The position numbers were made by a program, and so were the translations under genes. A DNA stretch of 2,349 nucleotides from a virus (Duplodnaviria; Heunggongvirae; Uroviricota; Caudoviricetes). The stretch lies in the IMG/VR virus record IMGVR_UViG_2698536428_000011; one strand, written 5' to 3'. Under the pieces are notes generated by a model. The model ran no database searches. It saw only the letters and a program-made list of their open reading frames with translations, and was not told the origin of the DNA. This document shows positions 1-2,349 of this stretch, piece by piece (the first letter of the stretch is position 1; each line of letters begins with the position of its first letter).

Positions 1-555
1 TCATTTATCTCCGACCGGAAACTTCTTATACAAAGTCGATACGCCAACATCATAAATGATCGCCACCTTCTGGCGAGGAACTCCTGATGCAATTAGTCGC
101 CCGGCCTGCGCCCATTGTTCTGGTGTAAGTTTGGGACGACGTCCACCAATTCGTCCCTGTGCGCGAGCAGCTTCCAGTCCAGCTTTTGTTCGTTCAACAA
201 TCAGTTCTCGTTCCATTTCAGCCAGGGCACCCATCACATGAAAGAAAAAGCGCCCCATTGGGGTACTAGTATCAATTGAATCCGTCAGACTACGAAAGTT
301 GATGCCTCGTTCGCGCAACTCCTCAACCAGAATGACCAGATGCCGCATACTACGCCCCAGCCGATCCAGCTTCCAGACAACCAGAGTGTCACCTGCCGAT
401 AATGTCCTGAGCAGTTTTTTCAGTCCAGGCCTTTCGGACTTTGTACCGCTTATCTTGTCTTCAAAAATCAGCTCGCATCCTGCACAGTTCAGCGCATTAC
501 GTTGTAGATCTGTGTTCTGGTCATTTGTTGACACACGTACATAGCCAATAAGCAT
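1..555 (-). CDS. pin: Serine DNA invertase, Pin/Gin/Cin/Hin family site-specific recombinase
   Basis: ORF track 1..591 minus. Translation has the serine-recombinase N-terminal catalytic motif GYVRVSTNDQ (Ser codon at 529..531) and a C-terminal helix-turn-helix-like region (GRRPKLTPEQWAQAGRLIASGVPRQKVAIIYDVGVSTLYKKF). Start placed at ATG 553..555 (MLIGYVRVS...), which has GGGAG 7 nt upstream, rather than the in-frame ATG at 589..591. Stop TGA at 3..1. Symbol given from recalled similarity to e14 Pin, not from a search. Confidence 0.9.
   Translation of the reverse strand: MLIGYVRVSTNDQNTDLQRNALNCAGCELIFEDKISGTKSERPGLKKLLRTLSAGDTLVVWKLDRLGRSMRHLVILVEELRERGINFRSLTDSIDTSTPMGRFFFHVMGALAEMERELIVERTKAGLEAARAQGRIGGRRPKLTPEQWAQAGRLIASGVPRQKVAIIYDVGVSTLYKKFPVGDK
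405..475. promoter_or_regulatory. Candidate Fis-dependent recombinational enhancer inside the invertase 5' coding region
   Basis: In Hin, Gin and Cin systems the enhancer lies within the 5' part of the invertase gene and has two Fis sites about 48 bp apart. Here GCAGTTTTTTCAGTC (411..425) fits the G-N13-C, AT-rich-centre Fis pattern, and a second A-tract element (457..472, GTCTTCAAAAATCAGC) sits about 47 bp away but matches only partly. Position and motifs are suggestive only. Confidence 0.3.
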
Positions 556-609
556 GGTAGATCTCCCTGACAAAAGCAGGAATGATGCCATTTGCTCGTT
601 ATTTCTGCA

Positions 610-635
610 TTTTCATAAACGTTGGTTTGGGAGAA
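610..635. repeat. Inversion crossover site, invertase-proximal (pix/gix/hix-like 26-bp site)
   Basis: Imperfect dyad TTTTCATAAACG-TT-GGTTTGGGAGAA. Its right half-site is the exact reverse complement of the left half-site of the site at 2326..2349. The 16-mer TTGGTTTGGGAGAAGC (622..637) recurs inverted at 2324..2339. AAAC/GGTTT arms around a 2-bp core are typical of Hin-family crossover sites. Confidence 0.75.
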
Positions 636-995
636 GCGGCAAAACGAAATGTGGGAACAGGGGAAAATCAGATACCGGACATGGCTTCATTTAGTGGGGT
701 GAGGGATTATTACGGAAAACAACTTTTGCCAGGAGGGTTGATACTTCAGTGGCTGACGATTCCATCAAGTGCAGCAGCCAAAGCTGTAACACTGAATAAT
801 GGTAATTATCAGCTGTCAGGCTATAAATGGCCCCAGTCATTTGGTGTCCTGTTTGCTGTGTTTGCTACAAAAGTTTCTGGCTCGACTAACGAAGCATATG
901 CAATCTCAGTTAATCGTCACTCTACCGATGTAATTGTCACCTGGAATGCCCGTAAGGCTGATGATGTCCACATTTTAGGAGTTGGGAAATTATGA
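610..995 (+). CDS. Tail-fibre C-terminal variable cassette, silent copy (Sv'-like); no independent start expected
   Basis: Plus-strand frame is open from the crossover site (ORF track starts at ATG 582 in the invertase leader) to TGA 993..995. The crossover site encodes the junction peptide NVGLGEA, matching LENLGLGEA on the other arm. Ends in an ATGA stop/start overlap with the downstream Tfa-like gene. By analogy with Mu S/S' and e14 it would be expressed only after inversion fuses it to the constant fibre N-terminus. Confidence 0.65.
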
Positions 996-1411
996 AAATG
1001 AAATGGTCCCCATCTGTTCAGGGATTTTTCTCTGAAAATAACAGCGATATTCCCGATGATGCTTTCGATATTGAAGATGCTCTTTATTATGAACTTATGA
1101 ATGGTCAGAGTACGGGGAAAATTATTATCAATAACCCGGATAACTACCCTGTACTTACTGAATATCCAGCGAAGACACAGGAACAGGAAATAGCTGAAGC
1201 GGAGGGAATGAAAAGTATACTTATTGAACAGGCCAACGAATACATGAACAGTAAGCAATGGCCTGGTAAAGCCGCTATTGGTCGTCTGAAAGGTGAGGAA
1301 CTGGCGCAATATAATTTGTGGCTGGATTACCTGGACGCACTGGAACTGGTCGATACTTCCGGTGCGCCAGATATTGAATGGCCTACGCCTCCGGCAGTTC
1401 AGGCCAGATGA
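992..1411 (+). CDS. Tail-fibre assembly protein (Tfa / gpU-like chaperone), silent-cassette copy
   Basis: ORF 992..1411, 139 aa. ATG overlaps the upstream stop (ATGA at 992..995), with AGGAG at 976..980. C-terminus ...[19 protein letters not shown] carries the conserved Tfa C-terminal motif (VDTS-APDIEWP). N-terminal region ([23 protein letters not shown]...[14 protein letters not shown]) resembles Tfa-type chaperones. Confidence 0.8.
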
Positions 1412-1646
1412 CGTCCGGCGCGGTGCTGGTATCTGATTCCATCACCGCGTCGATATTACCAACATCATATTCAGTCATTTCCGGTTCCGGTGGTGCTATA
1501 AACTCTCCGTCAGAATAGAACCAACCGACGCCTGCATCTATATCATCAATATTTATAATTTCGCAGTTAGAGAATAAATCACCCTCTCCATCCCAGATAA
1601 TAATATTTTTCACCACGCCATGTTCAATCAGAGCAAAATTACTCAT
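1383..1646 (-). CDS. Short Tfa-like tail-fibre assembly/chaperone protein, copy in the currently fused cassette
   Basis: ORF 1383..1646 minus, 87 aa. ATG overlaps the stop of the upstream fibre frame (TGATG), with GAGGAG 8 nt upstream. C-terminus ...[18 protein letters not shown] carries the Tfa C-terminal motif. Much shorter than typical Tfa proteins, so the functional call is tentative. Confidence 0.6.
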   Translation of the reverse strand: MSNFALIEHGVVKNIIIWDGEGDLFSNCEIINIDDIDAGVGWFYSDGEFIAPPEPEMTEYDVGNIDAVMESDTSTAPDVIWPELPEA

Positions 1647-2349
1647 CAGGCATACTCCTCAACAATAACTATTCCCGGGGCACCGTCACCTCCCGATTGA
1701 GCCTCACTTCCGGCAGGTGCGCAGGCTCCGCCTCCGCCAGCACCAAAGCCCTCAGCTTTACCACCACCACGTCCGCTGAATGATGAAGAACTTGCACCAC
1801 CTATACCGCCTGAACCTAGTGGTGTATCCCCCCCGGTACCACCTGCAACAGCTTTAACAGAGATAACCATTGCTCCTGGTGTTTTTGCACTACAGCGAAA
1901 TGCTCTTAGTACAGTACCGGACGATGTCGGACTGGCACCCCATGAAATACCCTGAATATATGATGTGTTTGCAGATGCTCCCCCCGCGCCACCGCCTGTA
2001 CCACCCGGTGCAGTTATCAGGGAACCGAAATAAGTTGTGCCACCTTCACTACCTGAATTTCTTCCGGCTCCCCCCCTTTACCTGCAGCACCGATAATAAC
2101 GTTGACTTCGAAATCATTATCAACCTCGAAAAATGCTTCAATAAATGCACCGCTCAATCCAGCTCCGGCTGTTGCCTGCTGATTTGCTGTTGTTTCAGGA
2201 ACCCCACCGCCGCCGCCACCGCCACCAGAGGCAATGACCCTTATCTTTTTTGTCCCTGGTGTTGGGATATATTTTCCAGAGCTTTTAAAAATATTCGTGT
2301 TTAACAAACGACCAGAGAATCTGGCTTCTCCCAAACCAAGGTTTTCGAG
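1646..2349 (-). pseudogene. Tail-fibre C-terminal variable cassette (Sv-like), partial at window edge, reading frame broken at a G7 tract
   Basis: One minus-strand frame is open from the window edge through the crossover site (LENLGLGEARFSGRLLNTNIF...SGGGGGGGGV...GAAGKGGEPEE...) to TGA at 2019..2017. A second frame is open from 2077 to TGA at 1648..1646 and encodes Gly-rich fibre-like sequence (...TAPGGTGGGAGGASANTSYIQGISWGASPTSSGT...GGTGGDTPLGSGGIGG...EEYA) coupled to the Tfa-like gene. The frames meet at G7 on the minus strand (C7 at 2070..2076); one extra G would give a continuous cassette of about 234 codons. Could be a true frameshift, programmed or slippage-based decoding, or a homopolymer sequencing error. 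Confidence 0.55.
2326..2349. repeat. Inversion crossover site, invertase-distal, truncated by window end
   Basis: TTCTCCCAAACC-AA-GGTTTTCGAG (last 2 bp of the 26-bp site would lie beyond 2349). Its left half-site is the exact reverse complement of GGTTTGGGAGAA at 624..635, placing it in inverted orientation to the 610..635 site. The minus-strand fibre frame reads through it in frame. Confidence 0.75.

Follow-up and report, generated by a model that had tools for sequence, protein, structure and literature searches.

A probable Pin-type DNA-inversion switch with an in-frame joint in a prophage tail-fibre gene of Escherichia coli

Two identical sequences in inverted orientation, both lying within fibre reading frames and one of them beside a gene for a DNA invertase, raise the question of whether the DNA between them can be turned round so that a single fibre gene is given alternative C-terminal ends at an unchanged joint. 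This question was posed by a stretch of 2,349 nt, referred to here as the window, which over its whole length is 100% identical to the chromosome of Escherichia coli JNEC-KY208 (source locus L001). RefSeq annotates this part of the JNEC-KY208 chromosome with the site-specific recombinase pinE, a tail fibre assembly protein and fragments of phage tail proteins. Our analysis leads us to conclude, with high confidence, that the window holds a Pin-type (Hin/Gin/Cin/Pin, 'Din') DNA-inversion switch belonging to a prophage tail-fibre gene, in which the invertible segment adjoining pinE measures ~1.72 kb. The coordinates of its parts are collected in Table 1.

Table 1. Parts of the predicted switch, by position in the window (position 1 is its first base).
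Feature	Position	Strand	Remarks
pin (pinE) DNA invertase gene	1..555	-	184 aa, start MLIGYVRVST
Pin-proximal 26-bp recombination site, pixR type	610..635		outer half-site 610..621, core TT 622..623, inner half-site 624..635
Left copy of the exact 16-nt inverted repeat	622..637		core, inner half-site and 2 nt
Variable fibre arm 1 (...GVGKL*)	624..995	+	here unjoined to the constant part; preceded only by a 13-codon leader from ATG 582
Tail fibre assembly chaperone of arm 1	992..1411	+	139 aa; Pfam Caudo_TAP E 2.6e-23; phrog_188 E 2.3e-51
87-aa ORF 3' of the glycine-rich arm, probably a small chaperone	1383..1646	-	Caudo_TAP C-terminal match weak
Variable fibre arm 2, glycine-rich (...IVIVEEYA*)	1646..2337	-	fused in frame with the constant part in this orientation
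Right copy of the exact 16-nt inverted repeat	2324..2339		reverse complement of the left copy
Constant-part-proximal site, pixL type	2326..2349 + 2 nt past the window end		inner half-site 2326..2337, core AA 2338..2339, outer half-site 2340..2349 + 2 nt
Last bases of the fibre constant (N-terminal) part, ...L-E-N-L	2340..2349	-	remainder beyond the right window edge

An inversion switch of this kind depends on a small serine recombinase, a protein of ~185-190 aa whose N-terminal part is a resolvase catalytic domain and whose C-terminal part is a helix-turn-helix (HTH), and the Pin protein of the window has this composition. Pfam searches of its 184 residues returned Resolvase over residues 3-135 (E 1.1e-51) and HTH_7 over residues 138-180 (E 3.4e-14), its PHROG match is to DNA invertase (E 1.5e-97), and it is 96.7% identical to PinE of K-12. 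The catalytic Ser9 lies within MLIGYVRVSTNDQ (YVRVST). The basic residues of helix B are found in PGLKKLLR as K46, K47 and R50, one residue offset from positions 47, 48 and 51 of Hin; basic residues of this GLKKLLR type are conserved among DNA invertases (eLife 2013, PMC3798978). The start at 555 (MLIGYVRVS), with GGGAGA before it, is the one used by K-12 PinE and by the RefSeq annotation. The pin frame is also open for 12 codons further 5' (556..591, minus strand), which would give 196 instead of 184 aa. Enhancers of the Din family are bound by Fis, act in cis and normally lie in the 5' part of the invertase gene, with two Fis sites ~47-48 bp apart. A Fis motif scan of the 5' part of pin, made with a motif too degenerate to be decisive, recognised no convincing Fis-bound enhancer. 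This very degenerate motif picked out one good Fis-core-like 15-mer, centred at 527 and ~95 bp from the core, while the only G...C 15-mer near the expected Fis spacing, centred at 478, has a GC-rich middle.

The invertase would act on a pair of inverted sites. As the earlier note had reported, the 16 bp TTGGTTTGGGAGAAGC at 622..637 return as their exact reverse complement, GCTTCTCCCAAACCAA, at 2324..2339, and the inverted repeat grows to 21 nt when one mismatch is allowed (617..637 / 2324..2344). Separated exact 16-nt inverted repeats were found in 0 of 1000 shuffled windows, a control that counts separated arms only; with self-overlapping palindromes included, the figure is 18 of 300. The identity between the two arms takes in every nucleotide, synonymous positions included, and ends 2 nt past the inner half-site. 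Alignment to the hix, gix, cix and pix sites, which had been proposed as a check, was carried out with the individual published sites of PMC3241671 (Table 3), leaving out the 'dix consensus' string, whose text was incomplete. The reverse complement of 610..635 reads TTCTCCCAAACC-AA-CGTTTATGAAAA and agrees with published pixR at 26/26 positions; 2326..2351, whose last 2 nt come from the source genome (L001), reads TTCTCCCAAACC-AA-GGTTTTCGAGAG and agrees with published pixL at 26/26. The hix, gix, cix, mix, bix and nix sites share 13-21 of 26 positions with those of the window. Within the window sites themselves, the two half-sites match as a dyad at 8/12 and 9/12 positions, and the core dinucleotide, written from inner to outer half-site, is AA in both. 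Equal core dinucleotides let the ends religate after rotation. Strand breakage and exchange in Din-family sites take place at the two central bases (PMC3241671). Because the window sites are identical to published pixR and pixL, it follows from this homology that the cores should be 622..623 (TT) and 2338..2339 (AA).

Both sites are read through in frame. The codons for N-V-G-L-G-E-A occupy 618..638 of the plus-strand ORF 582..995, and the minus-strand frame from 2349 passes through its own site as ...N-L-G-L-G-E-A. The earlier note had thus read the shared junction N-[V/L]-G-L-G-E-A correctly on both arms and erred in its coordinates, since 610..635 is the 26-bp site and 610..637 that site plus 2 nt. 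The core TT provides codon positions 2-3, the first base of the codon coming from the outer flank (C on the constant side, giving Leu; G621 on the pin side, giving Val). The inner half-site, GGT TTG GGA GAA, amounts to exactly 4 codons (G-L-G-E), and two further bases common to both arms (GC) fix the Ala. Since the core, the inner half-site and these two bases are common to both arms, the joint on the constant part reads ...LENLGLGEA in either orientation. Moreover, because it is the outer flank (with G621 or C before the TT core) that decides between V and L, a fibre made from the constant part always has Leu at this position and Val never occurs in it. The statement that inversion leaves the junction residues unchanged accordingly holds for LENLGLGEA; the Val that it included belongs to the pin-side flank and is absent from the fibre. 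This Val is confined to a short pin-proximal ORF from ATG 582, which has 13 codons before the core and lies beside the pin start. Upstream of its site, the left-arm frame consists of just this 13-codon leader abutting the pin start, without a fibre constant part.

The earlier note had made its interpretation hang on whether the constant part of the fibre gene is in frame with LENLGLGEA at the right edge of the window, and the source genome bears this out. There, 339 bases to the right of the core, lies the start of the constant-part ORF, which reads MAKNDF... and continues as RFSGRL into the glycine-rich arm; its translation is in frame over the 113 aa upstream of the site (L001 8338..8676), and these correspond to the N-terminal end of the tail fibre family phrog_11303 (positions 1-113 of 231, E 6.6e-65). 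The two arms correspond to C-terminal ends. Arm 1 matches positions 413-534 of the 534 in phrog_2557 (E 2.4e-33) and has a weak match, below cut-off, to Pfam Gp53-like_C; in strain G1/2, its fusion with the constant part makes a protein of 220 aa. Arm 2 in its intact form matches positions 433-636 of the 636 in phrog_6202 (E 1.5e-54) and Pfam Gly_rich_2 (33 bits, above cut-off). A tblastn search with the glycine-rich arm against deposited phages gave no match, to which the low-complexity filter of BLAST may contribute, as PHROG families do match. The arrangement is that of the Mu G and P1 C segments, with a constant N-terminal part outside, two convergent C-terminal arms inside and a chaperone gene after each.

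The chaperone that follows arm 1 is 49% identical to TfaP of K-12. The N-terminal part of the ORF that follows arm 2 is covered by phrog_14370 (function unassigned) and the C-terminal part by phrog_3792; its Tfa C-terminal motif is limited to the last ~22 residues, which show 87% identity to the final 23 aa of TfaE from K-12. The source genome annotates only the last 24 codons of this ORF, as an 'incomplete phage tail protein', whereas it is annotated in full in other genomes (WP_021533315.1). The chaperone genes converge and share 29 nt at their 3' ends (1383..1411), as do tfaP and tfaE in K-12, and the stretch 1256..1454 encodes the shared C-terminal motifs of both chaperones on opposite strands.

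Comparison with other genomes provided naturally inverted copies of the segment. Several megablast matches span just 617/622..2344, the stretch between the repeat arms. Strain G1/2 has the same segment flipped, at 99.5% identity and with flanks of the same kinds: its constant flank, ...ctctcgaaaacctt, continues into GGTTTGGGAGAAGC-ggcaagacg (arm 1), and its pin flank, ...ttttcataaacgtt, into GGTTTGGGAGAAGC-cagattctc (the glycine-rich arm). The flipped segment, with the other arm on the constant flank and the glycine-rich arm on the pin-side flank, is present in strains G1/2, Ec1117, 20Y000092 and PCP06235. The protein at the inverted joint reads ...LENLGLGEA followed by AARRNVG..., as against RFSGRL... 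after the same residues here. Among ten loci, the glycine-rich arm is on the constant part in L001, L003, L005 and L009 and arm 1 in L002, L006, L007 and L008; opposite orientations occur within one prophage type both for the e14/Mu-like prophages (L003 versus L002) and for the P2-like ones (L005 versus L006). Both orientations with unchanged flanks are therefore found between genomes, and the 64-nt joint predicted for the window locus after inversion is matched 64/64 in strain M-17. These sequences show directly the sites, the frames in which they are read, the fused proteins and both natural orientations. Inverted copies and fusion proteins that read both ways uphold the earlier note's central claim, that inversion swaps C-terminal domains at a fixed in-frame joint. 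Its further claim, that the recombination point was precisely defined, stands for the cores at 622..623 / 2338..2339 through pix homology, whereas the genome comparison gives 16 nt only. The change of partner always falls between base 621, where the flanks differ (G/C) just beyond the core, and base 638, where the arms first diverge; the comparison thus brackets the exchange to the 16-nt identity, and homology to biochemically studied sites narrows it to the 2-bp core.

The joints differ strongly in how often they are met. At >=80% coverage, the 64-nt joint of constant flank and arm 1 was found in 780 complete E. coli genomes, many of which may have fixed, non-invertible fibre genes, including one for a gp53-like protein encoded elsewhere in the K-12 chromosome. 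The joint of constant flank and glycine-rich arm was found in 4. The constant-flank sequence as such occurs in ~1500-1700 E. coli genomes.

A mechanism for the switch can be proposed on the model of related invertases. Pin dimers would bind the two inverted 26-bp pix sites ~1.7 kb apart, and the sites would assemble with a Fis-bound enhancer into an invertasome, as described for the family (PMC3798978). By analogy with Hin and Gin, four strands would be cut at the central AA/TT core with a 2-bp stagger, after which one pair of subunits would rotate by 180 degrees and the ends would religate, leaving the segment inverted. Either orientation would provide the constant part, ...LENLGLGEA, with one or the other receptor-binding arm, namely arm 1 (gp53-like) or arm 2 (glycine-rich), and each arm would be served by its own assembly chaperone encoded after it. 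The chemistry of cleavage, a crossover at exactly these 2 bp and the need for Fis and an enhancer are thus carried over from the family and are presumed to apply here, and inversion of the segment in JNEC-KY208 itself is predicted. For the homologous P segment of K-12 e14, inversion with in-frame fusion of two fibre ORFs has been demonstrated experimentally (PMC4272514; PMC12529663).

The glycine-rich arm bears on whether the switch still works in this prophage. Arm 2 of the window has a 1-nt deletion, with C7 on the plus strand (G7 on the coding minus strand) at 2070..2076 where L002 and L003 have G8, and with G7 the frame stops once 106 residues of the arm have been read. The fibre in the present orientation would hence be truncated unless G7 is an assembly error. 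We found 1-nt indels in 4/8 copies of the glycine-rich arm; those that were located lie in homopolymer runs (C, A, G), and some assemblies have several. L005, which has the same orientation in another prophage context, also has G7. Slipped-strand phase variation was considered for the difference between G7 and G8 and set aside: because other copies carry 1-nt indels at several other positions, the located ones in homopolymer runs, an assembly error is at least as likely as slippage.

A frameshift in the very arm that is joined to the constant part, together with the indels in half of the copies from other genomes and the lack of a recognised enhancer, might indicate that Pin and its sites have merely persisted in a decaying locus whose segment no longer inverts in this prophage. 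We regard such decay as very unlikely, since pin encodes a full-length, two-domain protein 96.7% identical to PinE, both sites agree with functional pix sites at 26/26 positions, close relatives show both orientations in the same context, and the located indels, being in homopolymer runs, may be assembly errors; besides, other Pin paralogues of K-12 act in trans on the same sites (PMC12529663). A quite different account would regard the 16-mer as no more than a conserved fibre coding motif (ENLGLGE) and would attribute the two arrangements to homologous recombination or to independent acquisition of cassettes. Conservation of the block before the joint between otherwise different constant parts would suit this account, as would the large number of E. 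coli genomes (~1500-1700) with the constant-flank sequence. Against it, the nucleotide identity includes synonymous positions and stops 2 nt past the inner half-site, and the repeat is inverted, adjoins an invertase gene and forms part of 26-bp sites with dyad half-sites and an exact match to published pix. The whole 1.7-kb segment, moreover, is 99% identical yet flipped between genomes with the flanks unchanged, and 16-21 bp are too short for efficient RecA recombination. Taken together, these observations make the coding-motif account scarcely credible.

Another possibility concerns the slot beside pin, which the inversion switch as described above would leave silent. The ORF 582..995 (plus strand) is open from ATG 582/585 and joins the 13-codon leader to arm 1 in a protein of 137 aa. 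If both slots were expressed, translation from ATG 582/585 would yield the arm beside pin as a short, free receptor-binding protein that blocks receptors against other phages, in the manner of StfE2. This idea draws on a K-12 chimera of the leader and a gp53-like arm ('StfE2'), which reportedly blocks T2 adsorption (PMC12529663), and it agrees with the conservation of the leader in the window, in strain G1/2 and in K-12 stfE; in addition, K-12 StfP has Gp53-like_C, the domain that arm 1 matches weakly. But the leader coincides in part with the pix site and with the region 5' of pin, and its conservation may stem from those alone. Past the leader, arm 1 lacks BLAST similarity to the K-12 arm. 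A scan of the window for promoters and terminators gave counts not above shuffle expectation, with no promoter-like site upstream of the start at 582. Expression from both slots therefore appears to us rather unlikely. The extended proposal, in which the pin-side slot would be a second expression site for a 137-aa receptor mask against other phages and the G8 tract possibly a slippage-prone on/off control, we judge improbable. Were both slots expressed, the inversion switch would also be a host defence switch.

How closely does the Pin switch of the window resemble those already described? The nearest relative is the P segment of K-12 e14 (pinE, stfP, tfaP, tfaE and stfE, with pixL and pixR), with which it shares 96.7% identity in the invertase, 93.5% in the DNA of pin and the adjacent site, both 26-bp sites, the order of constant part, arm, chaperone, convergent chaperone and arm, and pin, the 29-nt chaperone overlap, and the junction peptide up to LENLGLGE. 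Its 16-mer ends in GC, whereas the e14 repeats end in GG (PMC12529663), the last base being the sole difference. The contents of the segment are unlike: the arms of e14 are of the Gp53-like_C and Collar-domain types and those here AAKRNVG... and glycine-rich, with no protein similarity between the two sets past the junction, the second chaperone has 200 aa in e14 and 87 here, the segment is 1797 bp long in e14 and ~1.72 kb here, and within it only 1256..1454, encoding both chaperone C-termini, matches K-12 DNA (85%). The fibre N-terminal part and the baseplate cluster differ as well. The source locus lies beside yfhH/mltF, with a baseplate cluster unlike that of e14 (ymfQ-stfP...pinE-mcrA), and the prophage around the window is not e14. 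In the strict sense of the e14 Pin system, therefore, the locus has the invertase and the sites and lacks the e14 location and the e14 cassettes.

The same logic governs the G segment of Mu (Gin) and the C segment of P1 (Cin), where a serine invertase acts on 26-bp sites with a 2-bp core and the crossover falls inside the fibre gene; as here, a constant N-terminal part is combined with alternative C-terminal parts, each with a chaperone. The gix and cix sites agree with those of the window at only 17-20 of 26 positions; at its core, gix has GA where the window has AA (PMC3241671). The Hin/H segment of Salmonella, from which the mechanistic model is taken (PMC3798978), has a recombinase of the same subclass and the same 26-bp site architecture, with hix sites that agree at 16-20 of 26 positions; Hin, however, flips a promoter and does not swap coding ends. 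Cassettes are shared with P2-like elements. In Cartapus, an Escherichia phage of the Peduoviridae (P2-like), the DNA of arm 1 and its chaperone is 96% identical to that of the window; after it come a second, convergent chaperone, an alternative arm other than the glycine-rich one, and a Gin-like invertase. The P2-like prophages L005-L008 have the same two arms as the window. In P2-like modules, the constant part is that of a long H-type fibre (473 aa in all, with a Phage_tail_fib N-terminal domain), the invertase has 188 aa, and the outer half-site on the constant side is ttctcacatacc, giving LTYLGLGEA, unlike the window.

At least three unrelated tail modules were observed with the two cassettes of the window, at 97-99.5% identity across the segment. 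One is the baseplate-wedge/spike cluster of the window near yfhH (constant part L001 8338..8676), another is e14/Mu-like ymfQ-stfP (constant part L002 3717..4007), and the remaining one is the P2-like I-H-sheath module with its 188-aa invertase and the joint LTYLGLGEA (L005-L008). The constant parts of L001 and L002 differ at their N-termini and then converge on a common block before the joint.

The Pin tail-fibre switch of the window is an already known system, a piece of textbook biology that the earlier note described correctly, and its cassette set and context make the locus at most one further member of the known Pin-type switches. Passages in PMC12529663, PMC3241671 and PMC4272514 date the principle of the in-frame fibre switch to the 1980s, with Mu, P1, e14 and p15B. 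The value of the finding lies mainly in a correct annotation, with sites that are base for base the published pix sites. Two modest additions can be made to this: a single pair of cassettes is found at the conserved ...LGLGEA joint of three or more different tail modules, and an extra locus is available for testing the recent claim of an anti-phage protein from the 'silent' slot. A crossover site that is itself read in frame makes fibre cassettes freely exchangeable, and the switching of fibre tips by inversion is a form of host-range bet-hedging for a phage or for a tailocin-like prophage remnant.
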